Positions 9,437-44,704 of a stretch of DNA of 44,704 nucleotides are shown here, piece after piece (the first letter of the stretch is position 1; the number at the start of each line of letters is the position of its first letter). The stretch covers positions 1 to 44,704 of the forward strand of contig DATBWD010000247.1 of assembly GCA_036515015.1 (NCBI GenBank). Reading direction: 5' to 3'. The stretch comes from Tepidiformaceae bacterium. Lineage in GTDB: Bacteria; Chloroflexota; Dehalococcoidia; Tepidiformales; Tepidiformaceae. Below the pieces are notes generated by a model. That model was given only the letters and a program-made list of their open reading frames with translations. It did no database searches and had not been told where the DNA came from. A program made the translations under genes and the position numbers.

Positions 9437-10320
9437 GCGACCGCCCCGACGAAGTCCTTGCCCGGCACCCCAACGCCCTGCAGCGCGTGACCATCGCGCA
9501 GGGCTTCTACGCTGAGCGGCTCCGGCCCACAGCCGACCGCACAGTGAAGTTCGTCTGGTATCGGGAGGACTCCGGCGTCCCAGTCTGCTCGGCGAAGTCC
9601 CGGCGCTGCCGCAAGTGCGACCACTACTATCCCCTCGAGGAGAAGAAACTCACCGAGTGCCCGGAGTGCGGCGATCCGCGCTTCTGCCGGACGGGCGTAA
9701 TCAAGCCCGGCGACCGCTGTCGGATGCACGGGGGCGGGGCAAACAAACTCGTCGGCTCGGCCAACCCGTCATTCAAGCACGGCAAGTACTCCCGCTACAT
9801 GCCGGCCCGGCTGGCCGCCAAGTATCTCGAGTCCGCACGGGACCCCGAACTCCTCGCCAATCGCCAGGAGATAGCGGTGCTCGATGCCCGGCTGGCCGAA
9901 CTGCTGGGGCGGGTCGACACCGGGGAATCTAGCCGGCTGTTCTCGCAGGCCAGGGAAGCATTCACGGGGTTTCGCAACGCGTTGGATCGCTCCGACAAGG
10001 AGACCATGCAGATCCACCTGCAGACGCTCGATGCGACGTTGGGGCGTGCGGTGGGTGACTATGCGGCCTGGGACGATATCCGCCAGAGCCTTGAGACCCG
10101 CCGCAAACTCGTCGAGACCGAGATGCGTCGGCTGGAGAAGATGCAGCACTTCCACACGGCCGAGGAATTGCAGAGCCTGCTGACTGCCATCGCCCACATC
10201 GCCAAGCGCGTCATCTCAGACCCAAAGGTGCTGAATGAGTTCACCCTCGCCATTCTGGAACTCGGTCAGCGAGACCCTAGCCGATCTCCTGCGGCCGACG
10301 TACTACCGCGAGGCGCGTGA
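9433..10320 (+). CDS. putative terminase small subunit (zinc-ribbon plus RCxxHGG motif)
   Basis: GTGA overlap, in frame with track ORF 8890..10320. Contains CRKCDHYY...CPECGDPRFC and GDRCRMHGGGANKLVGSANPSFKHGKYS, followed by a long helical region. It lies immediately upstream of the large terminase. The functional call rests on position and memory. Confidence 0.5.
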   Translation: MSDRPDEVLARHPNALQRVTIAQGFYAERLRPTADRTVKFVWYREDSGVPVCSAKSRRCRKCDHYYPLEEKKLTECPECGDPRFCRTGVIKPGDRCRMHGGGANKLVGSANPSFKHGKYSRYMPARLAAKYLESARDPELLANRQEIAVLDARLAELLGRVDTGESSRLFSQAREAFTGFRNALDRSDKETMQIHLQTLDATLGRAVGDYAAWDDIRQSLETRRKLVETEMRRLEKMQHFHTAEELQSLLTAIAHIAKRVISDPKVLNEFTLAILELGQRDPSRSPAADVLPRGA

Positions 10321-11680
10321 CTGGCCAGACGTCAGTCACTACTACAACGCTGAGCGCCATCGATTCTACAAGCCCCACAACCGGGACGAGGCCATAGCGC
10401 TTGTCGACATCATCCACAGGTACATCCTAGCCAAGGGCGGCGAGGGCGGCGGCAAGTCCGTGTTCGGCATCATCAAGGACCTAGAGCGGTTCCGCCGGGG
10501 CTGTCACGGGATCGTCGTCAGTCCAGACTTCGAACACTTCAAGCGGTCCCTATGGCCGGAATTCCGCCGCTGGTGCCCGTGGGACATGGTCCATCCGAAG
10601 CACCGCTACCGCCAGGCACCGGAGTGGGAGCCGACCAAGCCCTTCATGTTGCTCTTTGTCACGGGGGCCGTCGGCTACTTCGGCGGCATCGATAAGGAGA
10701 TGGGCTGGGAAGGCCCGAACGTGAACTTCGCTCACTTCGACGAAGCCCGCCGCAAGGATACCCCGCTGGCCCTGAAAGTGTTGGATGGCCGCGTCCGCAT
10801 CCCCGGCCCGTTGGGCGACCCGCCGCAGATGTGGCTCACCACCACGCCCCGCAAGCATTGGCTCTTTGACTACTTCGGGCCACGCGCCCCAGGTGGCCAG
10901 ACCGACACCTATGCTGCGTTCAAGAGGGACTCGCTCGTTTTTACCCTCATCACCAAAGAGAACGAGGACAACTTGGAGCAGGACTACGCTGCCAAGCGGC
11001 GCCAGTCGCTGACGGAACAGGAGGCCCGGGTGCTCCTCGAGGCGCTATGGGAGGATCTCGAGGACACCTCGCACTTCCTGCCTTCGATGCTTCTCTGGGA
11101 CCTTTGCCAGACGACCATCCCCCCACTCGACGCCTACACGCCGATCGTGGTGAGCCTAGACGGGGCCGTTACCTACGACAACTTCGGCATCACGGCCGTG
11201 AGCCGCCATTGGGAAGAGGCCAGGCACGCGACCGACGTCGCCTTTCGCTTCGTCGAGGCCTGGACGGCTGACCAAGGCCCGATCAACTTCATGGGCACGG
11301 AGGACTATCCTGGCCCTGAGCGCCGCCTGCGCTGGCTCATCAACAACTTCAATGTCGTGCAGGTCTGCTTCGATCCAGCCCAACTGCACGACATGGCGCA
11401 GCGGCTCGGCGTGCCGGGCGACGGGCTGGCGTGGTTTTCCGAGTTCAGCCAGGCGGCGGAGCGGCTGGTGGCCGACAAGCGCCTGCTGGATCTGATCATC
11501 CAGCGCCGGGCGCAGCACGACGGGAATCCGAGCCTGCGGCAGCACATCGAGAATGCCGACAAGAAAGAGGACCCCGAGACCCGGCGGCTACGGATCGTCA
11601 AGCGGCACGAGGCATTGAAGATCGACTTGGCCGTGTCGGGCTCGATGGCTGCCCATCGCTGTCTGGAATTGAATCTGTAG
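10235..11680 (+). CDS. terL: terminase large subunit
   Basis: Walker A-like LAKGGEGGGKS, Walker B-like VNFAHFDEA, and a C-terminal RNaseH-like nuclease region (VVSLDGA...VCFDPAQ). About 480 aa, upstream of the portal. It overlaps the upstream gene by 86 nt, with no later in-frame start seen. Confidence 0.85.
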   Translation: MSSPSPFWNSVSETLADLLRPTYYREARDWPDVSHYYNAERHRFYKPHNRDEAIALVDIIHRYILAKGGEGGGKSVFGIIKDLERFRRGCHGIVVSPDFEHFKRSLWPEFRRWCPWDMVHPKHRYRQAPEWEPTKPFMLLFVTGAVGYFGGIDKEMGWEGPNVNFAHFDEARRKDTPLALKVLDGRVRIPGPLGDPPQMWLTTTPRKHWLFDYFGPRAPGGQTDTYAAFKRDSLVFTLITKENEDNLEQDYAAKRRQSLTEQEARVLLEALWEDLEDTSHFLPSMLLWDLCQTTIPPLDAYTPIVVSLDGAVTYDNFGITAVSRHWEEARHATDVAFRFVEAWTADQGPINFMGTEDYPGPERRLRWLINNFNVVQVCFDPAQLHDMAQRLGVPGDGLAWFSEFSQAAERLVADKRLLDLIIQRRAQHDGNPSLRQHIENADKKEDPETRRLRIVKRHEALKIDLAVSGSMAAHRCLELNL

Positions 11681-12167: not shown

Positions 12168-12176
12168 GAGGGTCGC

Positions 12177-13862: not shown

Positions 13863-13924
13863 CCGTGCCCGTGCAGACAGTGAACCTAGAAATCGCCCGT
13901 TGAAAGGCAAGGAGGAATAGCCCC

Positions 13925-14828: not shown

Positions 14829-14888
14829 CCGACGGCCGGGGCGCGGCAACGGAGGCGAAGTCCGACAGTTTCAGGCCAGGAGAACTAA

Positions 14889-26084: not shown

Positions 26085-29062
26085 AACTAGCCATCGTCCC
26101 GTGGTTCAACCACCCGGACCGGGGGGACGGCGGCATCCGGCGCGTGGTCGAGGCGCAGGTTCGGTACCTGCGGGACTACGACGTCGAGCCGATCGAGAAC
26201 GCCGACGAGGCCGATGTGCTCATGTGCCACGGCACGTCGCTGGTTACCCGCCCAGGAAAGCCCGTGGTCAATTGCAACCACGGGCTGTACTGGAGCCGTT
26301 ACGATTGGCCCCTGTGGGGCGAGGAAACCAACGCCCTGGTCATCGATGCCATGGCGAACGCCCAGGCACATACGGTGCCCAGCCGATGGGTTGGGGACGC
26401 CGTGCGTCGGGGCATGCTCGTGTACCCCGAGGTGATCTATCACGGGGTCGAGTACGACGAATGGCAGGGTGAGCCGGGCAAGCACGGCGGCTACGTTCTG
26501 TGGAACAAGGCCCGGACGGATGCGGTGTCGGACCCGGCCGATATGAATCAGGTGGCGGCGATGCTACCGAAGCGGTGGTTCGTGTCCACCTTCGGCAACC
26601 CGGCGCGCAACGTCCGGCTGGTCGGCAAGCAGGCCCACAGCGTGATCAAGCCGCTGGTGGTGGAGGCGGGGGTCTATCTGGCGACCACCCGCGAGACCTT
26701 CGGGATCGGGACGCTCGAGGCGATGGCTGCCGGCGTTCCAATCGCCGGATGGGCCTGGGGCGGGCAACTCGAGATTGTCCGTCAGGGCCAGACGGGATAC
26801 CTAGCCCCGCCCGGCGATCACCGGGCGCTCGCAGACGCCATCGAGGCGTGCATCGCAGAGCGGACGCGCCTGTCGGCGAATTGCAAGGATGACGTTCAGG
26901 AGCGATGGCTCTGGCCAGACAAGATCCGCCAGTACGCCATGCTGATCCACCGGGTCCACGAGGCCTATCACCGGCCCGGCCCCCGGGTGTCGGTGATCAT
27001 CACCTGCCACAACCTGGCCCGGTTTGTGGGCGAGGCCATCCGCTCAGTCCAGTCTCAGTCCTTCGAGGATTGGGAGTGCATCGTCGTCGACGACGCCAGC
27101 ACGGACCCGACCAAGGAAGTGGTGGAGATCCACTGCGCGGACCCCCGCGTCCACTATTTGCCGACGCCGGCAAACTTGGGCCTGTCGGCTGCCCGCAACT
27201 TCGGCTACCGGGCCAGCCGGGGGCGGTATGTGGTGTTCCTCGATGCCGACGACATGATGGCGGACAACGCCTTGGCCATCCAGGTGGAGGCGCTTGACAC
27301 TCGTCCCGGCATGCACATCGTGACGGGTGGGCTGGAGATCGTCGATGATGGGGGCAAGAACCGGCACCGGAACGACTGGCCATCCGGCGCCTACAACTGG
27401 TTCGGTCAGATGGCCCACATGAACCAGATTCACTACTCGAGCATGATGCGCCGGGAAGTGATGGAGCGCTCCGGCGGCTACCGGGTGCGGGACTGGCGGG
27501 CCGAGGACGCAGCCCTGTGGTGCCGGGTGACGTCGCTGGGCTTCCGGGCCGTCCGGGTGACCGATGCGCCCACCCTGATCTACCGGGACCGAAGCGACTC
27601 CAAGTCTAAGGGCGAGCCGGGGGACGGGCCTTGGACCGAGGCGTTCGGCTGGGCGCTGGCCTACAAGTTCGACCGCACCCTGTCGGTCGCTGCGGCCCGC
27701 GGGCACCATCCTAACCCGGATGTTGTTCCGTTCGGGGCGCAGGGGTCGCCCGCCCCCCACAAGGCGTGGCCGGTGCATGATTACGCCAACCCATTCGTGT
27801 CGGTGATCATCCCGGTGGGACCGGGCCATGAGCGGTACGTCATCGACGCTCTGGACTCGCTACTGGCCCAGCGCTTCGTGAATTGGGAGGCCATCGTCGT
27901 CAACGACACGGGCCGGCTTTGGGCGCAGGGCTTCGACAGCCCGCTGGCCGGCGCGCCGTTTGCCCGGATCATTACAGCCAGCCAGCACCTAGGACCGTCC
28001 GGTGCCCGAAACTTGGGGGGGAAGTACGCCCGGGGGGAGGCGCTGCTCTGGCTGGACGCCGACGACTATCTGATGCCGTTGGCCCTCGACAAGATGGTGG
28101 CGGCCTACGTCGAGAGTGGCCGGGTGATCTACACCGACGTCTACCAGCGGTTCGCTGACGACAGGAAGCCCATGGAGCCTTACGTCACCGAGGACTTCGT
28201 GTGCGGGGCGGTACTCAAGCGCATGCAGCACACCTCGCAGGTGTTGGTGCCTCGGGCGGTCCATGAAAAGATAGGAGGCTTTGACACCACGGCACCGGGG
28301 TGGGAAGATTGGGACTACCTCATCGCCCTACAGCATCAGGGGCTATGCTCTCTCCGCATCCCTGAGCCGCTGTTCGTCTACCGCAAGGAGAGCGGGCAGG
28401 TCCGGGAGAAGGCGTGGGCCAGCCGGGAGCAGAACGTCAAGTGGATTCGCAACAAATGGTTGCCCTACTACGAAGGGAGGATGGAGATGCCTTGTAGCAA
28501 GTGTCCTCAGCCGGCCGACGGAGCGCGGAAGCCCCAACAGGTGTTGTCCGCGGCTTCGGGCGGCGGATCATCGGGCGCGTCGACAGACGCGGTGCTCATG
28601 GCCTATCAAGGGCCGGGGCCGAAACGTATGGCTATGCGAGGGAAAGTCACCGGGACGGTCTACCCCTTCAAGCAGGGCGAGTTCCGGTACGTCGATGCCC
28701 GCGACGCTACTGACTTCCTAGGGCGCGTGCGGGGGGACGGATCGCATGATTTCCTGCTGAAGCCGAAGCCCGTCCTGCCCAGCGTGCCGCCGCCAGCCGA
28801 AATGACAGTGGCTGGCCCGCCGCTTCCTCTGCCCGTGATGGGCGTCGACATGGCGGTCGGTGAGGACCATGGAGGAATAGCGGAGATCCACGTGAGGATC
28901 TCAGACCTCGACGAGGCTGGAGCGAAGGCGCTTGCCCGGACGGCCAACCCGGAGGACTACGAGGCGCTGATCGCCGAAGAGGAATCGGGCAAGCATCGGC
29001 CGAAGGTCCTCAATTCGCTCAAGTACTGGCAGAGGATGCGGGGCGAGAGGGCGACGGCTTGA
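26075..29062 (+). CDS. three-module glycosyltransferase (GT4-like GT-B + GT2 + GT2) with unassigned C-terminal region
   Basis: ATG 26075 overlaps the epimerase end by 10 nt, in frame with track ORF 25898..29062. The GT-B E-x7-E region is ETFGIGTLEAMAAGVPIAG...QGQTGYL. GT2 module 1 is VSVIITCHN...VVDDASTD...LDADD. GT2 module 2 is VSVIIPVGPG...VVNDTG...LDADD. The last 200 aa or so have no motif I recognise. Confidence 0.8.
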   Translation: MGLKLAIVPWFNHPDRGDGGIRRVVEAQVRYLRDYDVEPIENADEADVLMCHGTSLVTRPGKPVVNCNHGLYWSRYDWPLWGEETNALVIDAMANAQAHTVPSRWVGDAVRRGMLVYPEVIYHGVEYDEWQGEPGKHGGYVLWNKARTDAVSDPADMNQVAAMLPKRWFVSTFGNPARNVRLVGKQAHSVIKPLVVEAGVYLATTRETFGIGTLEAMAAGVPIAGWAWGGQLEIVRQGQTGYLAPPGDHRALADAIEACIAERTRLSANCKDDVQERWLWPDKIRQYAMLIHRVHEAYHRPGPRVSVIITCHNLARFVGEAIRSVQSQSFEDWECIVVDDASTDPTKEVVEIHCADPRVHYLPTPANLGLSAARNFGYRASRGRYVVFLDADDMMADNALAIQVEALDTRPGMHIVTGGLEIVDDGGKNRHRNDWPSGAYNWFGQMAHMNQIHYSSMMRREVMERSGGYRVRDWRAEDAALWCRVTSLGFRAVRVTDAPTLIYRDRSDSKSKGEPGDGPWTEAFGWALAYKFDRTLSVAAARGHHPNPDVVPFGAQGSPAPHKAWPVHDYANPFVSVIIPVGPGHERYVIDALDSLLAQRFVNWEAIVVNDTGRLWAQGFDSPLAGAPFARIITASQHLGPSGARNLGGKYARGEALLWLDADDYLMPLALDKMVAAYVESGRVIYTDVYQRFADDRKPMEPYVTEDFVCGAVLKRMQHTSQVLVPRAVHEKIGGFDTTAPGWEDWDYLIALQHQGLCSLRIPEPLFVYRKESGQVREKAWASREQNVKWIRNKWLPYYEGRMEMPCSKCPQPADGARKPQQVLSAASGGGSSGASTDAVLMAYQGPGPKRMAMRGKVTGTVYPFKQGEFRYVDARDATDFLGRVRGDGSHDFLLKPKPVLPSVPPPAEMTVAGPPLPLPVMGVDMAVGEDHGGIAEIHVRISDLDEAGAKALARTANPEDYEALIAEEESGKHRPKVLNSLKYWQRMRGERATA

Positions 29063-30923: not shown

Positions 30924-32423
30924 ATGGGAAACGAGATCACCGTCGCTGGCGAGAGCCGAGTGTGGCTGGCCGAATTCGGTGCCGGACCTGGGCACGCATT
31001 CGTGTATCAGGGGTGCATGAAGATCGGCGACACTTCCTGGCCGCAGGGCGACATCACCCGGATCGAATGTCCCTCGCCGGACCGGCGCAACGAGTTCGTC
31101 GAGGTAGCGGCCGTGCAGGGGGCGCAGGAACGTGTGAGCACGGAGTTGATGGGGCGCTACCCGCGCGACATCAGCACCCTGCTCGAACTGACCCGGCGCC
31201 GATGCCGCTTCGACATTCAGGTCCACGTCGGCCGCTGCAAGAGCCCGCAGGACTACCTCGGCGGCTGGGACAAGATCAAGGTCTACCGCGAGGCAACGGT
31301 CACGGAGTGGTCCGACGAGAACGCCGGTGCGATCGAGTCGGGTGAGCAGAACCCGACGAACGAGACCGGGGCCATCAGCGCCAAGGACCTCTACGAGATC
31401 GTCCCGATCGCCTTCGCCGAGAAGGCCAAGACGGAGGTCGTGCGGGAGGTCGTGGCCGCTGTGATCTGCGACTCGGCGTCCTGTGGCGACTGCGAGAACC
31501 CGTCGAAGGGCTGCGAGAAGGCGTTCTTCCTGATGGGCGGCACGGGGGCGACTCCGGGCACCAAGCCGGCCGTGGTGTTCACGGGCGACGGCGGGGTGAC
31601 GTGGGGCGTGTCCTACGTCGACAGCATGTTCTCGGACGAGACCCCGACTGGCCTTGCCTGTGTGGGCGGCTACCTCGTGGCGATCTCTGAGACGACCACC
31701 GGCCTGCACTACGCCTCCATCGACGAGATCTTGGCCGGCACCGAGACCTGGGTCGAGATGACCACAGGCTTCGTCGGGGCGATCGAGCCGTTCGCCATCG
31801 CCAGCGCCGGCGCTCGGGCGACGTGGATCGTCGGTGAGGACGGCTACATCTTCTTCGTCCTCGACCCGACCGTGTCGGCCGAGGTGCAGGACGAGGGCGT
31901 GGCGACCAGCCAGGACCTCGCCGACATCGCCGCTCTGGACGGCCGCAACGTGGTGGCCGTGGGCGCCAGCAATGCCGTGGTGTTCACGGACAACGGCGGA
32001 GTGACATGGCAGTCGGTGACTGGCCCGTCAGTGGGCGTGAATCTGACTGCAGTTGTCATGCTCGGGGCCTCGCTCTGGCTGGTGGGCAACGCCAATGGGG
32101 CGCTGTACTTCACCGAGAACGCCGGCGTGTCCTGGACCCAGATCAGCCTGCCCGGCACGCCTACGGTCATCCGCGACATCAAGTTCGTCGACGACGTCGT
32201 CGGCTACCTAGCCTTCGACGCGGCTGGCCCGGCCGGGCGCATTGCCCGGACCGTCGACGGGGGAGCGACCTGGTACATCCTCCCCGAGAAAGCAGTCTCG
32301 GGTGTCATCCCGGCCAACGACCGGATCAACGAGATCGCCGTGTGCCGGGACAACGTCAATCTGATCTTCGCTGGCGGCCTGTCCGACCTGTCGACAGACG
32401 GGATCATCATCAAGGCCGCGTAG
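30924..32423 (+). CDS. putative major tail (tube) protein fused to an Asp-box (BNR) propeller-like domain
   Basis: The ATG follows TAGGAGG. It lies immediately upstream of the chaperone/tape-measure pair. The C-terminal two-thirds carry four Asp-box-like motifs: TGDGGVTW, TDNGGVTW, TENAGVSW, TVDGGATW. Confidence 0.55.
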   Translation: MGNEITVAGESRVWLAEFGAGPGHAFVYQGCMKIGDTSWPQGDITRIECPSPDRRNEFVEVAAVQGAQERVSTELMGRYPRDISTLLELTRRRCRFDIQVHVGRCKSPQDYLGGWDKIKVYREATVTEWSDENAGAIESGEQNPTNETGAISAKDLYEIVPIAFAEKAKTEVVREVVAAVICDSASCGDCENPSKGCEKAFFLMGGTGATPGTKPAVVFTGDGGVTWGVSYVDSMFSDETPTGLACVGGYLVAISETTTGLHYASIDEILAGTETWVEMTTGFVGAIEPFAIASAGARATWIVGEDGYIFFVLDPTVSAEVQDEGVATSQDLADIAALDGRNVVAVGASNAVVFTDNGGVTWQSVTGPSVGVNLTAVVMLGASLWLVGNANGALYFTENAGVSWTQISLPGTPTVIRDIKFVDDVVGYLAFDAAGPAGRIARTVDGGATWYILPEKAVSGVIPANDRINEIAVCRDNVNLIFAGGLSDLSTDGIIIKAA

Positions 32424-33253: not shown

Positions 33254-35755
33254 ATGGCCTTCCCAACCGTAGGCGTGCTGGCCATCGTCGAAGGCATGAA
33301 CTCCTTCCGCCGCGACATGGACGAAGTCAAGCGGCGGATGGAGCAGTTGGGCCAGACGAGCCAGAGCGTAGCCAGGCAGACCGGAACCCTCTCGACCGCC
33401 ATGGGCGGCGTGGGCGGCGCTCTATCCGCCATCGGGACCATCGCCGCAGGCATCCTAGCCGCCGGAGCCATTCGTGCGATCGCCAACGAGATCAAGCAGA
33501 TGGCGTCGGAGGCCTTTGACGCCGCCGCCCAACTGCAGAAACTCGAGATCCAGTTCAACACGCTGGTGGCCCGCGAGTTGGCAGCCTCCAACAGTACCGA
33601 GGGCTTCGCTGACTACCTGCGGGAAGCCGGGGCGGCCTCCGACTACCAGGTCCAGCGCTTCATCAACCTGCGGAACTCGCACGACAACTTCATCAAGAAG
33701 ATGGCGGAGGTCGACCAGCACACGGCGGCCGGGCGATACGCCTTCGAGCAGTACGGGAATCGACTCAAGTGGGTCGACAGCCAGATCCGCGAACTCATTC
33801 CAGGCTTCGACGGGCTGGACAACCGCCTGCAGCAGTCCGCCTTCGGGACCTACGACTTCTCCGAGGCCCTGAAGGAGGCCGCCGCGCCAGCCCGGGAACT
33901 CCTGAACTGGTCGCTCCAGATGTCCGTGACCACCCCCTTCCGGCCGCAGACCATCAGTAGCGCCATCAGCCTGTCCATGGCCATGGGTTTCCAGACCAAG
34001 GAGATCCGACGGCTGATCACGGCGACGGGCGACTACACCGCCGGCATGGGGCTGAGCGACGAGGTCATGCAGCGCATCCTGTACAACTTCGGCCAGATGA
34101 AGGCGGCCGGCAAGGTGATGGGAACCGAACTGCGAGACCTCGCCCGCGGCGCCATGATGCCTGTGGCGACCGTGCTCGAGATCATGCAGCGCAACATGGG
34201 GCTGACCAACATCTCCCTCGACCAGTTCCGCAAGAACGCCGCCGCAGGCCAATACGACGTCGACCAATTCGTGGAAGCCTTCGTGCAGATGGCCGAGAGC
34301 GACTTCGCCGGGGCCATGAAGCGCATGTCGGGCACGTGGGCTGGGGTGACTCAGGACGTGCAGGACTTCATCAACGTGATCCTCGGCGCCAGCGTGCTTC
34401 GGCCGATCCTCGACAGTCTATCCAAGGGGCTCCGGGGCTTGATCGACAGCATGACGGATGAAGAGACGGCCGCCAAACTGGAGACCACCCGCGGTCTGAT
34501 GAGCAGTATCGTCACCAGCGTCGGAGGCATCCTCACAGCCCTGTCGGGGATGGCTGGATTGAAGATCGAGCCGGGGGGGTTCCTTCAGTCGTTCAATGAT
34601 TTCCTCCGGGGCATCGCCATTCCGATGGCCCAACTGCGAGCGCTTCTGCGAGGCGATTTCAGTTTCGACGAGTGGCTACAGCGCGTTGGGTTCACGGAGG
34701 CGCAGAGCGAGAGCATCAAGGGATTTCTGCACCTGTTTGACCCCGTGATTCAGGGCCTACAGATGCTGTACGATGCGGCCGTCGGACTTGGCCCCACGAT
34801 CAAGCAGACTATCGACGACCTGGTCGCGGCAGTTTCGCCGGTCGTTGCGATCGCATTACCGGGTGTCCTCGAGAACCTCGGCGAGATCTTTGGCGGGCTG
34901 GGGAAGTCGCTGGCGGCCACCGGACCAGGCATCTTGGACATTCTCGGCAAGGTAGTGGCCTTGCTCGCCACGGCGGCCATCGGCACGCTGGATCTCTTCG
35001 TGACTAGTCTTGCTACCCTGCTCGACATCGCCAACGGCGATTGGGCTGGTGCCGCAGAAAACGTCGGGGGGTTCTGGGACAGGTTCCTCGAATCTGCCCT
35101 GTCGCTCGCTGGCGAGACGCCCGAGTCGTTCGCCGAGAGTTGGTCGTGGGTGTGGGAAGCGGCGGGCATCATCTCTGACAGGTTCTGGTCGAATCTGCAG
35201 GAGACGTGGGCGGCGAATGACGACATGCTCCTGCTCATAGTCCAGACCATGATCGCCAACTACTCGGAGCGGCTCAAGACGGATTGGGCAACCTTCCTTG
35301 AGGACATGCTGGGAGGCATCGATGCCTGGGCCGGCGTCTGGGCCAATCTCGAGACCATCAGGCTCGAACTGGTCAAGAGGGGTGGGGCCTTGATCCAGGG
35401 GTTCTGGGACGGTGCGAAGGCCAAGGTCGCCGCGTTCATGACCTGGCTCAGCGGAAAGATCAGCGATATCCTCGCTCTGTGGGACAAACTGCTTGATATC
35501 GGTTCGCCATCCCGAGTGATGGTGGGCATCGGGAAGAACATGATGGCTGGCCTGCAGAAGGGCGTTGGCGAGGGGATGCGTGGCACCCAGGCGGCCATGA
35601 CCGCGGCGGCTGGCCAGCAGGCAGCGGCCCTGCCCGTGATGGCCGGCGGCGGGGCGTCGACATACAACCGCACGATCAACATGGGCGGCGTCTACAATCA
35701 GGGCATCGGGGGCGGAGTGTTCGACCGGGCCATGCGTGACTGGCTGGGAGCCTAG
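33254..35755 (+). CDS. tape measure protein
   Basis: 833 aa. It has Gly/Ala-rich hydrophobic stretches (GGVGGALSAIGTIAAGILAAGAIRAI) and is long and helical. The position is canonical. Confidence 0.85.
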   Translation: MAFPTVGVLAIVEGMNSFRRDMDEVKRRMEQLGQTSQSVARQTGTLSTAMGGVGGALSAIGTIAAGILAAGAIRAIANEIKQMASEAFDAAAQLQKLEIQFNTLVARELAASNSTEGFADYLREAGAASDYQVQRFINLRNSHDNFIKKMAEVDQHTAAGRYAFEQYGNRLKWVDSQIRELIPGFDGLDNRLQQSAFGTYDFSEALKEAAAPARELLNWSLQMSVTTPFRPQTISSAISLSMAMGFQTKEIRRLITATGDYTAGMGLSDEVMQRILYNFGQMKAAGKVMGTELRDLARGAMMPVATVLEIMQRNMGLTNISLDQFRKNAAAGQYDVDQFVEAFVQMAESDFAGAMKRMSGTWAGVTQDVQDFINVILGASVLRPILDSLSKGLRGLIDSMTDEETAAKLETTRGLMSSIVTSVGGILTALSGMAGLKIEPGGFLQSFNDFLRGIAIPMAQLRALLRGDFSFDEWLQRVGFTEAQSESIKGFLHLFDPVIQGLQMLYDAAVGLGPTIKQTIDDLVAAVSPVVAIALPGVLENLGEIFGGLGKSLAATGPGILDILGKVVALLATAAIGTLDLFVTSLATLLDIANGDWAGAAENVGGFWDRFLESALSLAGETPESFAESWSWVWEAAGIISDRFWSNLQETWAANDDMLLLIVQTMIANYSERLKTDWATFLEDMLGGIDAWAGVWANLETIRLELVKRGGALIQGFWDGAKAKVAAFMTWLSGKISDILALWDKLLDIGSPSRVMVGIGKNMMAGLQKGVGEGMRGTQAAMTAAAGQQAAALPVMAGGGASTYNRTINMGGVYNQGIGGGVFDRAMRDWLGA

Positions 35756-37810: not shown

Positions 37811-38688
37811 TGAGCCTAGCGAACATCGTCGTCCTGCACAACCCAGCCACGCTTTGGGAGCGGTACCGCCGCAACATCCCTATCGCCCAGATCGCCGATT
37901 GGAAGATGGTTGAGCGGGAAGAGGGTGGCTACTACTCAGCCACCTTCTCTTTCCGCCCGAAGAGCCGGGAGGACGCGCTGGAGTTCCTCAACAACGGTCC
38001 CGGACGCATGACCGAGTTCTACAACCACCGGGGCATAGGCGACTGGGAGGGGATGGTCAAGCGGGTAAGCATCGACACGGGCATCGTCAAGGTGACCAAT
38101 GACCTTGCCGACATGGCCAACGCGGTGCTGGTGCGCTACTCCCCGGTGGGCGGCGGGTCCCCTACCCGTAGTGCAGTCAAGACGCACGCCGCCAGCCAAA
38201 CTCGGTTCGGAAAGAAGTACTTCGTTCTCTCCGGCGGAGAGTTGGCGGCCGCCGTCGCTGACCAGCGCGCGCAACTGTATCTCGACCAGGTATTCTGGGC
38301 TTCGCCACGGCTAGAGAGCGTCGACCAGGGCGGCAAGTTCAAGGCTGAGGGAATTACCGTCGACGTGCAGTGCATTGGCCTGAGCGAGGCGATGGACTTC
38401 GTGCTCTACAACCAGACGGCACTCACTGGTCAGGTAGACGCCTCCGTAGTCGTGACGGCCATATTCACCAACGCCGAGGTGATGCAGTTCATCAAGTCCT
38501 ACGAGGTGGCGACCAACGTCACGCCGGTCAGTCGGGAGTTCGATAACGATCGCCGCCCGATGGAGATCCTCAAGAGCATCGCGTCTCTCGGCGACAGCAA
38601 CCGCAATCCCTACGTGGTCGGGGTTGAGGGTGACCGGCACGCGTACTTCCGGCAGGGCGTGCCATATCGCATTCCGGGGCAGACATGA
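37810..38688 (+). CDS. minor tail protein
   Basis: TGATG overlap. 292 aa. Position-based call. Confidence 0.55.
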   Translation: MSLANIVVLHNPATLWERYRRNIPIAQIADWKMVEREEGGYYSATFSFRPKSREDALEFLNNGPGRMTEFYNHRGIGDWEGMVKRVSIDTGIVKVTNDLADMANAVLVRYSPVGGGSPTRSAVKTHAASQTRFGKKYFVLSGGELAAAVADQRAQLYLDQVFWASPRLESVDQGGKFKAEGITVDVQCIGLSEAMDFVLYNQTALTGQVDASVVVTAIFTNAEVMQFIKSYEVATNVTPVSREFDNDRRPMEILKSIASLGDSNRNPYVVGVEGDRHAYFRQGVPYRIPGQT

Positions 38689-40172
38689 GGGGCGGACGGA
38701 CTGCGCGCGTTACCGAGGAGCATGGCCGGGTGACGACGGAGATATCGCTACGGCCGGTGGACTACGTGCGCGACGGCGTGCTACGGGAGATCCCTAGCGA
38801 CCTGCTGGATGGGGTGATGGAGGAGCGGCACCCACACGGCTTCGACGCCTTCATGACTGGTGGATTCTGCCGGGAGTTGGACCCGGAAGTGCCCGTGATG
38901 TGGATGCTCGACCGCTTCGATGAGCGGCTCGAGGTCTACGCTCTCAACACCATCCCAACGGTGCTGGGGCAGCGCCGACGGCAGGGCGTGCGGTACCCGA
39001 ATGCCTGGCCGGCAGCGGACTTGGAGTTTGAATACGCCGGTCATCTAGTGCGAAAATTGATCCGTCTGCAGGCCGGCCACCCGCTAGATTTCTCGTTCCG
39101 CTTCAACCGGCAGCCAACGCCGGGGCGCTTTCCGGGCGGCATGGCGTTCAGGGGGATCGAGGTCCCTTCGCCCTACCTCATGGGGCCGGAGGGCCAGAGC
39201 GTGGCGCTACGCTGGAAGCGCACGGGCCTGAGCGAGGTCATGGTCGAACTACCTGTGCGGGATTGGGCTGGTTGGGTGCTCGACCCGACGCTCACCCTAC
39301 AGCCGGACGCTACGGCCGGCAAGGACACGGATATCTGGGAGCAGTTCTCAGATGGACTATCGGGTAGCAATCCAACCCGCGCCTACCTAGAGTTTGGGAA
39401 CCTTCTTGTCTCAGACCGCTTCTCCAAGCCTTTGATTCAGTTCGACCTCTCCACCATCCTGCCCGGAAGCACCATCACCTCCGCTATTTTGAGCGTCTGG
39501 AAAGACAACACGCCATCATCCTTCAGCGGCACCACGACCGCCAGCATTCTCCGCCTGCTCAGGGCGTGGGTCGAGGCGACGACAACCTGGGTCGTATACG
39601 ATACCGGGCTGCCTTGGACTATAGCGGGAGCCGGAGGGTCCGGCACGGATTTCGACCCCACCTCCCTTGGAACCCTCGCCATTCCTGATGACGCGCCCAA
39701 CGGCACCCGCTTCGATGTCGCGCTGACAAACTCCCTCATTCAAGAGATAATTCCCGGCGGAACGATGGCCAACAATGGATTGCTTTTCAACCAGAGCAGC
39801 GCCGGCGACCTCGCGGAAGCCATACGGTCCAGCGACCATGCCACAGCCGCAGAGCGCCCGAAACTGGTAGTGGTATACGACCTGCCAGTGGTCAACCGGC
39901 TGGCAGCCTACTCGGTGAATCTGTGGGACCCGAAGGGCATCATCCGCGACCGGAACGGCAACCCGGTCGATGTGAACGAACTGCACGCCGGGCCATTCAT
40001 CGAACTGCTGGGGGCCGACCTGCCCGGCACAGAGGTGTACCCGAACTTCTTCCAGGACCCCAGCAAGACCAAGATCTCCGAGGTCAGCAAGGGACCGGAG
40101 GGAGCGCGGATCAAGGCGTCGTCCAGCCAATTCGCCGATGCCATCGTGCGCCGAGCAGCGCAGGGGCTATGA
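38685..40172 (+). CDS. minor tail protein with DNRLRE-like (carbohydrate-binding-type) domain
   Basis: ATGA overlap. The central region DTDIWEQ...RFSKPLIQFDLSTILPGSTITSAILSVW...WVEATTTW...NNGLLF...ERPKLVVVY resembles the DNRLRE domain signature (memory-based). This domain is visibly more A/T-rich. Confidence 0.55.
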   Translation: MRGGRTARVTEEHGRVTTEISLRPVDYVRDGVLREIPSDLLDGVMEERHPHGFDAFMTGGFCRELDPEVPVMWMLDRFDERLEVYALNTIPTVLGQRRRQGVRYPNAWPAADLEFEYAGHLVRKLIRLQAGHPLDFSFRFNRQPTPGRFPGGMAFRGIEVPSPYLMGPEGQSVALRWKRTGLSEVMVELPVRDWAGWVLDPTLTLQPDATAGKDTDIWEQFSDGLSGSNPTRAYLEFGNLLVSDRFSKPLIQFDLSTILPGSTITSAILSVWKDNTPSSFSGTTTASILRLLRAWVEATTTWVVYDTGLPWTIAGAGGSGTDFDPTSLGTLAIPDDAPNGTRFDVALTNSLIQEIIPGGTMANNGLLFNQSSAGDLAEAIRSSDHATAAERPKLVVVYDLPVVNRLAAYSVNLWDPKGIIRDRNGNPVDVNELHAGPFIELLGADLPGTEVYPNFFQDPSKTKISEVSKGPEGARIKASSSQFADAIVRRAAQGL

Positions 40173-40414: not shown

Positions 40415-41140
40415 ATGCGAGCATTCGTCGTGGGTGGAGGCCCGAGCCTGAAGCACACCAACCTCGACCGCTTGGTGGGTGAGGTGTCGTTCGCCATGAA
40501 CCGCATCGACCTGGCGTACCAGCCCGACCCGGCCAACGGCATCCGAGGGACCATCTGGCGGCCAACCTACTACCTGTTCGCCGAGCACGTTGGCATTGGC
40601 GTGAAGGCGAGCGCGGATTGGAAGGACTACTCGCAATATGTGCTGCCCTATCACGTGGACGCCGGAGAGACATGCATCATCCGGTCGGTGTTCAAGCCAT
40701 CGCTGGCCCGTGCTGCTGGCGGACGGCTGGATTGGCCGAACGTCACGTGGTTCGATAACGAGGACTGCGAGCACCACAATTGCAACATCCGTAGCGATAA
40801 CCGGCCCTCCCGATGGCACCTGCCGACGCTGTGCGCCTTCGGGGGCACGGTCGGAATCGCCATTCAGATGGCACTGATGTTCGGCTATGACCCCATCTAC
40901 CTCGTCGGCTGCGACCTGGGCTACAAGCCGGTGCGCGGCGGGCCAGACCCCAACCACTTCCACCCGGATTACCACACCTGGGACACGCACCCGCTGCTCG
41001 AGCGGGACGATACGCTGATCTTGATGCACCAGATCGCCGAACAGGAAGTGATCGCACACGGCCGGAGCATCTACAACGCCACGGTCGGCGGCCTGCTCAA
41101 GGTCTATGACCGCGTCGACTACGAGAGCCTGTTCGAATGA
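40415..41140 (+). CDS. MptE/Maf-like (DUF115) protein, putative glycosyltransferase
   Basis: The N-terminal AFVVGGGPSL and the central FGGTVGIAIQMALMFGYDPIYLVGCDLGY...HFHPDY match my memory of the DUF115 Rossmann-like signature. Confidence 0.55.
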   Translation: MRAFVVGGGPSLKHTNLDRLVGEVSFAMNRIDLAYQPDPANGIRGTIWRPTYYLFAEHVGIGVKASADWKDYSQYVLPYHVDAGETCIIRSVFKPSLARAAGGRLDWPNVTWFDNEDCEHHNCNIRSDNRPSRWHLPTLCAFGGTVGIAIQMALMFGYDPIYLVGCDLGYKPVRGGPDPNHFHPDYHTWDTHPLLERDDTLILMHQIAEQEVIAHGRSIYNATVGGLLKVYDRVDYESLFE

Positions 41141-42516
41141 CCGAGAGGGTTCTGGGGACAGATGTCAGCCTGTTCAACGGGCTTGTCTACTGGCCCGGAG
41201 CCAAAGCCGACGGCGTTGTGCACGCGGGCATCCGATGGGGCCAGCGGGACGGGCGCAACGGCTACGCGGATCCGCGCCGGCTCGAGAACTGGTTGGGCGC
41301 CAAGGCCGTCGCCATCGACCGCTACGGCTATTGGGTGTGGGATGAGCGGGCTGGCCACGGCGCTGCAGCCCACATGGCGGGGGTAGTCACGTGCTCGCTG
41401 ACCTACGATGGCGAACTCCCTTTCGTCGTCGACGTCGAACTGCTGCCGCTCCGCTGGGATGAACTACACTCCTTCCTGATCCGGGTCGAGTCGTGGGCCG
41501 GCCGACGGCCGATCATCTACACCGGCTCGTGGTACTACGACATCGTCGACCCACTTCCGGCATGGCTCGAGCAGTACGAGCACTGGCTGACGGGATATAA
41601 TGACGACGGCCCCAGCGTGTGGGGGCCACTTGCAGATCTCGACATCGCCGTCGTAAACTGGCAGCAGTCCAACGCATGGCAGGTGGGCTGGTGTGAGCGC
41701 GGGGCGGCCGACCGTGACTACTGGATCGACGACTATGCGGGCCACATAGGAGGCGAGATGGGCGACAAGGTTGTTCGGACAGAGGACTTGCGGGCATGGC
41801 TGGCGGGCAATGAGTTCGAGGTCGATCCGCCCGCCCCGCCGCCGGTGCCATCCGACGCGCTCTGGCTGGCTTGGCCGTGCGATCCGCCCAAGACGCTGAC
41901 CCAACGGTACGGCATCAACAGGCAGCACTACGCGCAATTCGGGCTACCGGGCCATGAAGGCATCGACTTCCGGGCGCTGACTGGATCGCCGATCTTCGCT
42001 GCGGCGCCTGGCGTGGTGAGCCGGGTGGAGCCGGCCGCCGGGAGTGGGGCCTACGGTGTGCATGTGCGGGTGAAGCACACCCTTGGCCTCGAGGTCTACG
42101 AGACCGTCTACGGCCACTGCCAGGTCGCCAGCCTCCGCGTGGCTCTGGGCGAAGCCGTCGAGCGGGGACAGGTGGTCGGGCTGGCTGACAACACGGGCAA
42201 CTCGAGCGGGCCGCACCTGCACATGACCCTGAAGCACTATGGCAAGGGTAGCCCGTGGATGAACAAGAGCGACATCGTCAACCCGACGGCCTACATGCCA
42301 GACCTCTTCCCGGGCAACGGATGGATCGTGGACATCGCTGGCAACCTGCGCGAGCAGCCCAACGACCAGGCACCCATCATCCGTCTGCTGGCCGCCAACA
42401 CTCTTCTGCAGGCGCTTGCCTTCGGAGGCGAGGGCGGCGACTGGTGGAAGGTTAAGTTCGGGACGCAGGAGGGATGGTTCTGGGAGCCGGGCTACAAACT
42501 GCGGGCGGTGGCTTGA
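41137..42516 (+). CDS. endolysin: GH25-like muramidase + M23 peptidase + SH3-like domain
   Basis: ATGA overlap. The N-terminus GTDVSLFNGLVYWPGAKADGVVHAGIRWG...VVDVE is GH25-like. A PPAPPPVP linker follows. M23 motifs are HEGIDF and GNSSGPHLHMTLKH. The C-terminal WWKVKFGTQEGWFW is SH3b-like. Confidence 0.85.
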   Translation: MTERVLGTDVSLFNGLVYWPGAKADGVVHAGIRWGQRDGRNGYADPRRLENWLGAKAVAIDRYGYWVWDERAGHGAAAHMAGVVTCSLTYDGELPFVVDVELLPLRWDELHSFLIRVESWAGRRPIIYTGSWYYDIVDPLPAWLEQYEHWLTGYNDDGPSVWGPLADLDIAVVNWQQSNAWQVGWCERGAADRDYWIDDYAGHIGGEMGDKVVRTEDLRAWLAGNEFEVDPPAPPPVPSDALWLAWPCDPPKTLTQRYGINRQHYAQFGLPGHEGIDFRALTGSPIFAAAPGVVSRVEPAAGSGAYGVHVRVKHTLGLEVYETVYGHCQVASLRVALGEAVERGQVVGLADNTGNSSGPHLHMTLKHYGKGSPWMNKSDIVNPTAYMPDLFPGNGWIVDIAGNLREQPNDQAPIIRLLAANTLLQALAFGGEGGDWWKVKFGTQEGWFWEPGYKLRAVA

Positions 42517-42824
42517 TGGAACTCCCGCCTCAGTTGCAGTGGGCGCTCGGACCATTCGGCGCGCTGATGATCCTAGGCGTCGTCGCATGGCTTGGATTTA
42601 GGGGACACATCTGGAGCAAGCGCCAGGTGGATCAGGCGACCAATGCCCAGCGCGAAGCCTTCAAGATCGCCGCTAGGGAGATCGGCGAGGCGATGGCGAA
42701 GGGCTTGGAGGACGCTATGACGAGTGCCATCGCAAACGGCGTCCCAGCCATGTACAAGAAGATCCGCAAGTTCGAGAATGGCAAGATCAACGCGGCAGCG
42801 GCCAAGCCAAGGCGCAGGGCGTAG
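42516..42824 (+). CDS. holin-like membrane protein
   Basis: TGATG overlap with the endolysin, in frame with track ORF 42474..42824. It has one TM (WALGPFGALMILGVVAWLGF) and a charged C-terminal tail. Confidence 0.5.
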   Translation: MELPPQLQWALGPFGALMILGVVAWLGFRGHIWSKRQVDQATNAQREAFKIAAREIGEAMAKGLEDAMTSAIANGVPAMYKKIRKFENGKINAAAAKPRRRA

Positions 42825-42840
42825 TTGCCGACGTCGGCAA
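42825..42840. repeat. perfect 16-bp palindrome
   Basis: TTGCCGACGTCGGCAA lies directly after the stop at 42824. Confidence 0.7.
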
Positions 42841-42842
42841 AC

Positions 42843-42956
42843 ATGGGACAGCCCACCGACCCACCCCTGATCTGGGCGCTACTGGCAGGCATCCTCTCCT
42901 ATCTCGTCCTAGCCATGCTGGTGTGGGCGGTGCGGAAGGTGCCACCGACCAAGTAG
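42843..42956 (+). CDS. 37-aa membrane peptide (second lysis-cassette component?)
   Basis: MGQPTDPPLIWALLAGILSYLVLAMLVWAVRKVPPTK. Below the track threshold and with no clear SD. Confidence 0.35.
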   Translation: MGQPTDPPLIWALLAGILSYLVLAMLVWAVRKVPPTK

Positions 42957-42961
42957 GCGGC

Positions 42962-42990
42962 TTGCCCGGCCGGCTGGCCTGTGGTAGCCT
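42962..42990 (+). promoter_or_regulatory. weak promoter candidate
   Basis: TTGCCC, a 17-nt spacer, then TAGCCT (TAnnnT), in the 79-nt gap upstream of the LCP gene. Confidence 0.25.
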
Positions 42991-43035
42991 GACAGCCGTG
43001 CCGGACCGGGCCTTCCCCCCACGATAGGAGAGCCG

Positions 43036-44145
43036 ATGAAACTACGGGAGTTCGTTCTCGTCCTCTTTGCCTTCCTGCTGGCCGGCTGCGCCCCGGCCAC
43101 GGGCGGGCCGCTGGCGACGGAGGTGGCTGTCCAGGCCACGATCTTCGCCCCCAGCCCCACTCCGCTACAGCCAGTGCCGCCTACGGCTACGCCTGTGCCC
43201 GGCCCCGAGGCGACGTCCTTCGTCCTGCTCGGTCTGGACTCCGACCCGGCCCACCCGGAGCGGAACGCCTACGGCATCCGCACCGACGTGTTCGTGATCG
43301 GCGTTCTAGTCACCTACCCGCAGTGGGACGCGCCGCCCCGACTTGTCCTGTTCAGCCTGCCGCGGGATCTCTACCTGCCCATCGCCTGCGCCGGGGACAC
43401 CCAGACGGGCTCGTGGATCGACCTGCCGGGCCAGTATGCCATCGACCAATCGTTGGCCGACGTGCCTCGAGAAGCCTTCGACCGCATCAACGCCGCCTAC
43501 TACCGGGGCGGGCCAGAGTGTGTGCGAGAGACTATTCGCTGGAACTTCGGGATCACTGTGGACGGGCCAGTGGTGGCGGTCGAGATGGGCAAGTTCGTGG
43601 AAGCCGTTGACGCGCTAGGCGGACTTGACATCACGCCCGGCGAGGACTACGTCGACTTCTGCGGTTACTACCTCGGCACCGACGGCAACGGCGGTGACTG
43701 GCGGCACTGGCGGCCTGGAGTCACCCGCCACCTGACGGGCAATGAGGTTCTCTGCTATGTGCGCGGCCGACGCACGCCAGATGGCGACCTTGACAGGAAC
43801 CGCCGAACCCTCGAGGTACTGCAGGCTGCTCGGCAGCAGTGGACGCCCGAGCACCTGATGAACACCGCTGGGGCCGACGGCGTCGCCACGCTGATGTCCT
43901 GGGCGTGGAACTACGTCACGGTCGACAACTGGATCACGACGATCACATGGAGCGTGGATAACTTCGAGCCACTGCGGCTGGCCGAGATCAATACGGCCCG
44001 CATGCGGCTAGGTGAGACGGTGGAGTTCTACACCACGCCGGGTGGAGCGAGCGTCGTGGTGCCGGCCTTCAATCTGGTCGAGCCGGGCATGGATCAGGCG
44101 GACTACCTCATGCACTGGTTCGGCTGCGGCATCTGGGCCTGCTGA
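43036..44145 (+). CDS. LCP (LytR-CpsA-Psr) family protein with lipoprotein signal peptide
   Basis: The ATG follows TAGGAGAG. The lipobox is FLLAGC. LCP core motifs are FVLLGLDSD...IRTDVFVIGVL...LFSLPRDLYLP...INAAYYRGGPE...VDALGGLDI...LTGNEVLCYVRGRR...DLDRNRR. Confidence 0.75.
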   Translation: MKLREFVLVLFAFLLAGCAPATGGPLATEVAVQATIFAPSPTPLQPVPPTATPVPGPEATSFVLLGLDSDPAHPERNAYGIRTDVFVIGVLVTYPQWDAPPRLVLFSLPRDLYLPIACAGDTQTGSWIDLPGQYAIDQSLADVPREAFDRINAAYYRGGPECVRETIRWNFGITVDGPVVAVEMGKFVEAVDALGGLDITPGEDYVDFCGYYLGTDGNGGDWRHWRPGVTRHLTGNEVLCYVRGRRTPDGDLDRNRRTLEVLQAARQQWTPEHLMNTAGADGVATLMSWAWNYVTVDNWITTITWSVDNFEPLRLAEINTARMRLGETVEFYTTPGGASVVVPAFNLVEPGMDQADYLMHWFGCGIWAC

Positions 44146-44704
44146 TGCGCTGGAGTATCCTACTCGCTCTCCTGCTGACCGCCTGCGCGTCTGCCGTGCC
44201 GCCTACGGCGGAGCCTGTGGTGGCGACGGCCACGATCCGGCCTACCGCCCGCCCTACTCCCACGCGGACGCCCACGGCCACACCCAGCCCGACGCCTGAC
44301 CCGGCGTGGCCGTTCACCGTGCCGTGGACGGTGAACTGCACGGACGACGTGCAGGAGAATGGCTACGAGAACCAAGGCTACTGCGTGCCCGGACTTGTGA
44401 CCTGGGACGCGTCCCGCTTCCAGAACCCCGGCTCATTCTCCGGCGCCATCTCGAGTTACGGAGAGGGCATCGCCGAGGGAGTGTGCGGCTACCGGGCGAC
44501 CTACCTGGACATCACCTGCTCCAAGTACAAGGGCTTCGTGGCCGTGATGGGCTGCGGCGACATCGGAAAGCGGGCGATGATCCGCCGGCCGGGCCACGAT
44601 TGGGATGGCCCGTTCCTGATCGTGGACTGCTCGGGCCGCAACGACGTGGCCGTGAACGTGATCCAGAAGCGTCTGGCGGCGGAGGTGGATTACGCTACGG
44701 CCCA
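44145..44704 (+). CDS. secreted lipoprotein, 3'-truncated by the window end
   Basis: TGATG overlap with the LCP gene. It is not in the ORF track because it is open at the window edge. The lipobox in MRWSILLALLLTAC is LLTAC, followed by a Pro/Thr-rich linker and a Cys-rich globular part (...GKRAMIRRPGHDWDGPFLIVDCSGRNDV...). Confidence 0.6.
   Translation, partial: MRWSILLALLLTACASAVPPTAEPVVATATIRPTARPTPTRTPTATPSPTPDPAWPFTVPWTVNCTDDVQENGYENQGYCVPGLVTWDASRFQNPGSFSGAISSYGEGIAEGVCGYRATYLDITCSKYKGFVAVMGCGDIGKRAMIRRPGHDWDGPFLIVDCSGRNDVAVNVIQKRLAAEVDYATA

Follow-up and report, generated by a model that had tools for sequence, protein, structure and literature searches.

LytR-CpsA-Psr (LCP) enzymes are regarded as housekeeping enzymes of bacterial wall assembly and as drug targets. 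Why, then, does a gene for one of them stand among the lysis genes of a phage, coupled to the gene of a second lipoprotein? Both genes lie at the right-hand end of a 44,704-nucleotide stretch of DNA deposited as Tepidiformaceae bacterium (Chloroflexota; GenBank assembly GCA_036515015.1, contig DATBWD010000247.1, positions 1 to 44,704 of the forward strand), the whole of which we call the window. We are highly confident that the first gene encodes an LCP family protein and that it belongs to a phage cassette. What the two proteins do there can be answered only tentatively: at a rough probability of 0.45, we read them as an exported wall-remodelling pair within the lysis cassette, whose role would be accessory to lysis. 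The features of the pair, in window coordinates, are as follows.

43036..44145, + strand: LCP lipoprotein of 369 amino acids; ATG start; G+C at third codon positions (GC3) 0.84; PF03816
43078..43089, + strand: predicted lipobox L15-A16-G17-C18 of the LCP protein, closing its signal peptide (residues 1-18); Cys18 at 43087..43089
LCP residues ~19-57: Pro/Thr linker of ~40 residues
LCP residues ~58-369: putative catalytic domain, with the Pfam stretch at residues 102-268 (43339..43839)
44143..44147, + strand: TGATG stop/start overlap (LCP TGA 44143-44145, next ATG 44145-44147)
44145..44704, + strand: second lipoprotein, cut by the window end; full length of 267 amino acids at L001:11110-11913
44175..44186, + strand: predicted lipobox L11-T12-A13-C14 of the second lipoprotein, MRWSILLALLLTA-C14
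Second lipoprotein, to residue ~57: Pro/Thr linker
Second lipoprotein, residues ~58-222: predicted double-psi beta-barrel (DPBB), with the invariant Asp161

The initial annotation of this DNA, made from the letters alone, had described the first protein as an LCP enzyme with a lipobox and the conserved core, and both parts of that description are borne out. The family search that it proposed gave a clear result: the PF03816 (LytR_cpsA_psr) model matches the open reading frame (ORF) at E=5.3e-17 and 62.8 bits, over a cut-off of 24.6. The NCBIfam domain model TIGR00350 scores 53.7 bits, under its cut-off of 62.3, and the ORF is therefore a divergent member of the family. A profile built from the phage clade finds the structures of TagV, TagT, Cps2A and LcpA at E 1e-17 to 1e-12. 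When the AlphaFold (AF2) model of the protein (pLDDT 74, pTM 0.76) was compared with the PDB using Foldseek, the 33 best matches were all LCP structures (E 2e-14 to 3e-7, TMt 0.52-0.68). Fourteen clade members, spanning 35-97% identity, all have the residues D68, R82, D84, R110, D111, R150, N152, R243, R245, D251, D253, R254 and R256. In an alignment to Staphylococcus aureus LcpA, the invariant Arg and Asp residues line up with the active-site motifs that contain R99, R122/D123, K135/N137, R218 and D224, which, like R118 and R219 of TagT, take part in pyrophosphate/Mg2+ binding and in activation of the C6 hydroxyl of N-acetylmuramic acid (MurNAc) (PMC7831098). Judged by its sequence, the 369-residue ORF is a full-length member of the LCP phosphotransferase family, catalytically intact-looking, from a divergent clade found only in phages.

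The phage protein and the cellular LCPs (Bacillus subtilis TagT/U/V, S. aureus LcpA, Streptococcus pneumoniae Cps2A, Mycobacterium tuberculosis Lcp1/CpsA1) share PF03816, an alpha/beta/alpha fold and the motifs LGxD, R-[ST]-D, P-R-D, (K/R)-I-N-x-A-Y, R-x-R and G-D-x-x-R-x-R. They also share extracytoplasmic anchoring in the membrane, as a prediction in the phage case. The anchor itself differs: cellular LCPs usually have an N-terminal transmembrane (TM) helix, whereas the phage protein has a lipobox and a Pro/Thr linker. Its N-terminus carries a K/R n-region and a hydrophobic h-region followed by MKLREFVLVLFAFLLAG-C18, which fits the lipobox pattern [LVI][ASTVI][GAS]C. The lipobox is kept in most clade members but not in all, with a signal-anchor helix in the others (e.g., P0004), and the catalytic domain is predicted to be extracytoplasmic and membrane-tethered. 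Further differences from the cellular enzymes are an identity of at most ~29% to any of them, the place in a phage lysis cassette, the DPBB partner, the sub-cut-off TIGR00350 score and a set of clade-specific traits: six conserved Cys, insertions at residues ~113-148 and 210-225, and a conserved C-terminal extension, TTPGGASVVVP...W..C....C.

The second protein had been described as a coupled lipoprotein with the TGATG overlap, a lipobox (LLTAC), a Pro/Thr linker and a Cys-containing domain, and these features are as claimed; abutting or overlapping junctions between the LCP gene and the next gene also occur in the related contigs L008, L010 and L014. The guess that its domain is of a wall-binding or wall-lytic type fits the fold that we predict. 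The AF2 core (residues 97-221) has a pLDDT of 84-94, and its best Foldseek match is PA4485 (E 2.7e-3, prob 1.00, TMt 0.62), with a barwin-like protein, kiwellin, expansin EXLX1, designed DPBB proteins and GH45 at E 3e-3 to 4e-2; a cyanophage "Rare lipoprotein A-like" protein matches the core at E 7e-3. The core is thus predicted, with moderate support, to be a double-psi beta-barrel of the RlpA/expansin/barwin type. Sequence searches of the domain gave no match in Pfam (DPBB_1, 3D domain), NCBIfam, PHROG or the PDB. The protein resembles the 3D-domain transglycosylases RlpA and MltA and the expansin/barwin DPBB proteins in its predicted barrel core and in an invariant Asp after a core strand; it is a lipoprotein, as RlpA is, and has relatives with SH3b fusions. 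It is unlike RlpA and MltA in its lack of a DPBB_1, 3D-domain, SPOR or LysM match and in its modest structural score. We do not file it as RlpA or expansin: the fold is probably shared, but every sequence-family test failed, and an RlpA-like way of working is at most inferred.

How large is the family to which this domain belongs? An exhaustive profile search with the DPBB protein returned 988 cluster representatives at E<=1e-3, 70 of them at E<=1e-30. All 20 of the clusters sampled consist of metagenome sequences only, with products named just "hypothetical protein." Among 84 diverse relatives, the domain is covered by a Pfam family in none (0/84), and fusions join it to SH3_3 (nine cases), SH3_4 (four) and a YkuD L,D-transpeptidase (one). 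Y105, G155 and D161 (VDCSGR) are invariant across these 84, and Asp161 is a candidate counterpart of the catalytic Asp of RlpA and MltA. The relatives often have a signal-anchor helix in place of the lipobox, so the conserved feature is the membrane tether with its linker, not lipidation itself. The architecture of the second protein, as read from sequence, is that of a peptidoglycan-directed enzyme. Compared with L008, dN/dS is ~0.14 for the DPBB gene and ~0.19 for the LCP gene, values that indicate purifying selection on both.

Could the two genes nevertheless be bacterial DNA, either the flank beside a prophage end, as the initial annotation had allowed, or part of an assembly chimera? LCP enzymes are otherwise cellular, PHROGs holds no LCP family, and the G+C content of the last kilobase (0.669) is slightly higher than that of the window (~65%), all of which would suit such an origin. 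We regard it as refuted by the extended contigs. The identical LCP protein is present on at least 20 contigs from different samples; the seven that we fetched (L001-L007) are 99.9% identical to the window over 11.7 kb, all have the upstream phage genes, and they share the flanking phage genes as far as they reach. Past the window end, these contigs complete the second gene and continue with a 129-residue protein with four TM helices (4-TM), and then with leftward phage early genes for RecU, a PolB-type exonuclease, C5 and MT-A70 methylases and an Erf-like annealing protein. On the other side, four more contigs extend the window and carry further small leftward ORFs. The initial annotation had recommended a look beyond the window for att sites, tRNA genes or bacterial genes; we found no integrase Pfam match among the gene calls over ~63 kb, no tRNA gene in the window and no cellular genes in the extensions. 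No overlap joins the right extension (L001) to the left one (L067). The window is a fragment of the genome of an uncultured tailed phage (a siphovirus) of at least 63 kb, still incomplete and with no circular closure.

Nor do cellular genomes offer a source for the LCP gene. The best relative among 185,579 GTDB species-representative genomes, from metagenome-assembled genomes of Anaerolineales/Chloroflexota, has 29% identity, too little to point to a host, and none of these genomes holds a closer relative, a phage-like context or a prophage copy. INPHARED gave just weak partial matches in unannotated records, some of them obviously host-contaminated, and in the literature we found neither a phage LCP nor a lysis cassette with an LCP gene described. 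Synteny around the gene is kept at 34-72% identity. With phage DNA on both sides and the module recurring in diverged phage contigs, the view that the pair is phage cargo has stood, and a prophage edge, a host flank and a chimeric assembly were all rejected.

The LCP and DPBB genes are preceded on the same strand by the following features.

41137..42516, + strand: endolysin with GH25 muramidase, M23 endopeptidase and SH3_3 wall-binding domains (PF01183, PF01551, PF08239; PHROG endolysin families), first gene of the cassette
42516..42824, + strand: protein of 102 amino acids with one TM helix (1-TM; residues 10-28) and a charged helical tail; public gene call L001:9481-9789
42825..42956, + strand: ORF of 43 amino acids with one TM helix (residues 15-33); GC3 0.81; not called as a gene in public contigs
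42957..43035, + strand: intergenic spacer of 79 nucleotides, with a GC-rich hairpin and a Shine-Dalgarno sequence, AGGAG, 6 nucleotides ahead of the LCP start

The cassette therefore runs in the order endolysin, 1-TM protein, (43-residue TM ORF), LCP, DPBB protein and small polytopic, holin-like membrane protein, all on one strand and with short or overlapping junctions. This order is not peculiar to the window. A large protein database holds 17 close members of the LCP clade (E<=1e-40), all metagenomic, after which there is a gap to generic LCPs at E ~1e-11. Five diverged loci gave the first view of the synteny, and the succession of endolysin, 1-TM protein, LCP, second gene and small membrane protein is repeated at 72%, 54%, 41% and 38% identity. 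In a metagenome scan we collected 16 loci of the LCP clade, 11 with upstream sequence and 11 with downstream sequence. At every locus where this could be seen (11/11), the gene just before the LCP gene encodes an endolysin homologue; a DPBB gene lies directly downstream at 10/11, and a small protein with 2-4 TM helices follows the DPBB gene at 11/11. Loci of generic cellular LCPs, by contrast, had a DPBB gene nearby in 0/54 cases and an M23-like match nearby in 1/54. In the comparison with L008, the endolysin of the window phage is less well conserved than the LCP and DPBB genes.

Where does the cassette end? L077, a distant relative without LCP or DPBB, also has a small polytopic membrane protein at the end of its late genes, which resembles the L066 version by eye. 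The 2-4-TM gene is for this reason best read as holin-type, which places LCP and DPBB inside the cassette. A Pfam search of the 129-residue 4-TM protein of the window phage gave no match, and the protein is not similar to the membrane domain at the C-terminus of the DPBB proteins P0041-P0043; on these grounds we dropped the ideas that it is a GtrA-like flippase or a fusion partner.

Related phages do not all keep the LCP gene. The initial annotation had asked whether relatives would lack these genes, and the answer is mixed: close relatives keep both, L077 has neither, and L078 (IMGVR_UViG_3300025313_000023) has a different enzyme instead of the LCP. In L078 the endolysin is followed, at 17032-18273, by a protein of 413 amino acids that fuses DPBB to a CE4 polysaccharide deacetylase (PF01522, E 8e-15), and then by the same 4-TM protein (63% identity). 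The presence of CE4 in place of LCP implies that the slot holds wall-sugar-modifying enzymes, and it suggests a DPBB domain with interchangeable partners of this kind. In other contigs the LCP-DPBB linkage survives rearrangement. L074 (Ga0395806_0002455, 1-17068) encodes a DPBB protein that ends in a polytopic membrane domain of the DUF3307 type, a 129-residue protein, an M23 peptidase and an LCP of 34% identity, all set amid a dTDP-sugar cluster (RmlD-like, GT2, GT1, NTP-transferase, dehydratase, FdtA isomerase, HAD phosphatase and DegT aminotransferase). In L073 the LCP and DPBB genes are convergent. The phage-borne L073 LCP (L073:7187-8272) is more divergent: only its N-terminal half matches PF03816 (E 2e-7), the arginine of R-[ST]-D is apparently replaced, giving N-T-D, and the protein may be degenerate or repurposed.

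The short genes between endolysin and LCP are less well defined. The 102-residue 1-TM protein, whose longest ORF version begins at 42474, had no family match in Pfam, PHROG or PADLOC searches; a 1-TM protein of 115-133 residues occupies the same slot in L008, L010, L013, L014 and L078. It is a candidate holin, antiholin or lysis regulator. The 43-residue TM ORF is possibly a small lysis membrane protein, though its status as a gene is uncertain. For the 79-nucleotide spacer we considered a regulatory RNA or a promoter and rejected both: the hairpin reaches -41 kcal/mol, but its z is only -1.5 against shuffles, the sequence is kept only in part and only with L008, and there is no Rfam match, no sigma-70-like promoter and no intrinsic terminator in a consensus scan, for which the consensus may not be that of the host. 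The lack of such a promoter or terminator is indirect evidence for late transcription together with the lysis genes.

How might such a pair contribute to lysis? In the mechanism that we propose, both proteins would be made late with the lysis genes and exported by Sec. Anchored to the cytoplasmic membrane at its outer side, they would span the distance to the peptidoglycan by their linkers and work as a pair on the glycan strand and at C6 of MurNAc, the point at which LCP enzymes attach wall glycopolymers. The DPBB protein would cleave or loosen glycan strands as RlpA, MltA or expansins do. At the same site, the LCP protein would handle polymer that is linked to undecaprenyl pyrophosphate or to the wall. 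Together the two would provide an accessory wall-remodelling step that completes or conditions lysis where the host peptidoglycan is heavily decorated with secondary polymers. We rank a lysis-accessory role first because of the invariant position in the cassette, the partner of a glycan-cleaving type, the absence of signs of lysogeny and the CE4 alternative at the slot.

Several points weigh against this ranking. Known LCP enzymes build linkages between wall and polymer and do not break them. The CE4 deacetylase at the same slot would fit surface masking as well as lysis, and L013 and L090 carry a gene other than DPBB after the LCP gene. The DPBB assignment draws on a modest structural score (best E 2.7e-3) with no sequence-family match behind it, and the equivalence of Asp161 to a catalytic Asp draws on sequence invariance. 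Finally, the 79-nucleotide gap before the LCP gene could be the site of an independent promoter of a kind that the consensus does not describe in this host.

In a more specific mechanism, the LCP protein would act as a "de-ligase" that strips polymer from MurNAc C6, by reverse phosphotransfer onto undecaprenyl phosphate or by hydrolysis, and so opens the strand to cutting by the DPBB protein. The idea arises because lytic transglycosylases need the C6 hydroxyl of MurNAc to form 1,6-anhydroMurNAc, and this is the hydroxyl that wall polymers occupy. The CE4-DPBB fusion of L078 would then be a second solution of the "unblock, then cut" type. We think this specific chemistry quite unlikely.

A lysis-accessory role would have parallels elsewhere. 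Mycobacteriophage LysB and the spanins of phages of Gram-negative hosts likewise add an envelope function to endolysin and holin and are kept within their lineages, and the LCP-DPBB pair can be likened to them as a "third function," presumably one that handles a wall layer which the endolysin does not. The likeness is functional only. LysB is a cutinase-like mycolylarabinogalactan esterase, unrelated to the pair in fold and chemistry, and spanins are fusogens, not enzymes, and include a small outer-membrane lipoprotein, whereas LCP and DPBB are both predicted to be anchored in the inner membrane. We also tried the reading that the two lipoproteins are themselves a two-component spanin (Rz/Rz1) and rejected it: they have 369 and 267 residues and enzyme-type folds, where a spanin pair consists of a type II membrane protein with a periplasmic coiled coil and an outer-membrane lipoprotein of ~60 residues with no enzymatic domain, and TM anchors replace the lipobox in relatives, so that outer-membrane targeting is not conserved.

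Does the pair instead alter the surface of the infected cell? The most serious competitor to a role in lysis is receptor masking, superinfection exclusion or protection of progeny, although we hold it to be unlikely on balance. The LCP protein would ligate undecaprenyl-pyrophosphate-linked glycopolymer in the forward direction, more densely or at new sites, the DPBB protein would make room for it, and infected cells and debris would stop adsorbing or inactivating sibling or competing phages. Exclusion lipoproteins are known in other phages, T5 Llp and TP-J34 Ltp being examples, and the end of a late operon is the classic slot for conversion genes. The catalytic motifs of the LCP protein are intact, and forward ligation is the sole chemistry demonstrated for LCP enzymes (PMC7831098). 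The CE4 deacetylase in the L078 slot is another modifier of surface chemistry, and the BNR and Disaggregatase repeats of the tail proteins suggest a glycan receptor. All this has to be set against the location of the pair, which is always enclosed by the endolysin and a holin-like gene and is not part of an early or lysogeny module, and against the failure to find an integrase or prophage copies. Tight coupling to a fold of the glycan-cleaving type would be unexpected for pure masking. There was no PADLOC match, and we set known defence or exclusion families aside on that result. The gtrABC genes, O-antigen acetylases, T5 Llp and TP-J34 Ltp change the host surface polysaccharide or block receptors; lipoprotein anchoring is a common trait, and GtrA is a small 4-TM protein, as is the one that adjoins the pair. 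The pair differs from these systems in having no match to GtrA, GtrB or an exclusion protein, no sign of lysogeny and a place in a lysis cassette.

Two further explanations rank lower. The sugar-gene set of the window is unusually large, and in L074 the LCP and DPBB genes stand amid a cluster for dTDP-sugars and glycosyltransferases; the phage might build or extend a lipid-linked polymer with its own genes, which the LCP would fix to the host wall. We consider this improbable. The window encodes no polytopic membrane protein that is fit to be a priming phosphoglycosyl transferase or flippase, the fetched flanks of the LCP-bearing L010 and L066 contain no MptE-like gene, and the sugar genes lie 14 kb away from the LCP gene, among those for capsid and tail, a placement known for cytoplasmic virion glycosylation in mycobacteriophages. 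More improbable still is that the LCP would be a precursor trap, binding or hydrolysing undecaprenyl-pyrophosphate intermediates, draining the lipid carrier and stalling wall synthesis before the holin triggers. The model would be the single-gene lysis proteins that block MraY, MurA or MurJ. The arginines that bind pyrophosphate are conserved, and pyrophosphatase activity on polyprenyl pyrophosphates is a documented side activity of LCP enzymes, namely Cps2A, TagT and M. tuberculosis CpsA1 and CpsA2 (PMC7831098). Yet the phage is already equipped with holin-like genes and a two-domain endolysin, the trap would leave the obligatory DPBB partner unexplained, and the proposal is purely inferential.

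The sugar genes themselves are spread through the virion and packaging modules. They encode a methyltransferase (22804-23373), a GHMP kinase (23370-24362), an NAD-dependent epimerase of the GDP-mannose-dehydratase type (25173-26084), a protein of 1054 amino acids with one GT1 and two GT2 domains (25898-29062), an MptE-like (Maf-type) protein (40415-41140) and a SIS_2 isomerase-like protein (~8883-9437), all of them soluble. The set resembles a nucleotide-heptose or deoxy-sugar pathway and may serve the glycosylation of virion proteins. The block between capsid and tail genes (methyltransferase, GHMP kinase, epimerase and triple glycosyltransferase) recurs at 42-50% identity in the viral contig L071, and a search with the epimerase/dehydratase protein gave matches almost only to unnamed metagenome proteins. 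Proteins of the tail region (30924-32423 and 38685-40172) carry BNR/Asp-box repeats, of the sialidase-like beta-propeller kind, and Disaggregatase-related repeats, which hints at a phage that binds or degrades surface polysaccharide.

What kind of phage carries the cassette? Every convincing gene of the window is on the + strand, and besides the tail proteins there are two structural and packaging markers.

10235..11680, + strand: large terminase (TerL)
33254..35755, + strand: tape-measure protein (PHROG)

Cultured phages are distant: TerL gave a weak match, at 24.6% identity, to Streptomyces phages, and the endolysin gave matches at domain level only, in actinophages. Three phage DNA methyltransferases are encoded, one of the N6/N4 type at 7306-8625 and those of the C5 and MT-A70 types just beyond the right end (L001:15012-16804). 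An ORF of 73 amino acids at ~6140-6361 is possibly an anti-defence gene: in L067-L070 the identical gene has a precomputed match to the Pfam family PF26761 (Acb5). The early regions hold repeated gene-start elements. Between 3182 and 4317, six copies of the motif GGGGGAGGAGGGGACGTGAG, a very strong Shine-Dalgarno sequence with a GTG start, precede small early ORFs, and two of the copies are perfect repeats of 37 nucleotides (3182-3218 and 4048-4084). To the left of the window, L067:360-7180 has at least 10 copies of an intergenic element of 60-98 nucleotides, one before each small leftward early gene, which reads on the gene strand as a GC hairpin around TTAA, then CTAGGAGG, then ATG. A gene-free stretch of ~1.6 kb with more repeats (8228-8370) lies between the divergent early arms of L067 and could be an origin or a regulatory region.

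What does the locus mean for phages and for the LCP family? The pairing of LCP and DPBB in a phage lysis cassette is, to our knowledge, undescribed, while the LCP itself is a divergent member of a known family. A further result is a large, uncharacterised DPBB family of ~1,000 sequence clusters, with architectures like those of wall hydrolases. If the pair proves to mask the cell, it would be an LCP-based counterpart of O-antigen conversion in a host with wall-linked polymers. If it proves to be a lysis aid, it would be a new class beside LysB and spanins among accessory lysis functions and could yield an enzyme that releases wall polymers from peptidoglycan, the first of its kind known, of possible use as a reagent, as an adjunct to enzybiotics and as a probe of LCP reversibility. 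De-ligase chemistry, if real, would amount to a third kind of lysis function, suited to hosts whose peptidoglycan is shielded by covalent polymers. An intact LCP that is kept between endolysin and holin and coupled to a glycan-directed family suggests that phages manipulate the junction of peptidoglycan and glycopolymer late in infection.

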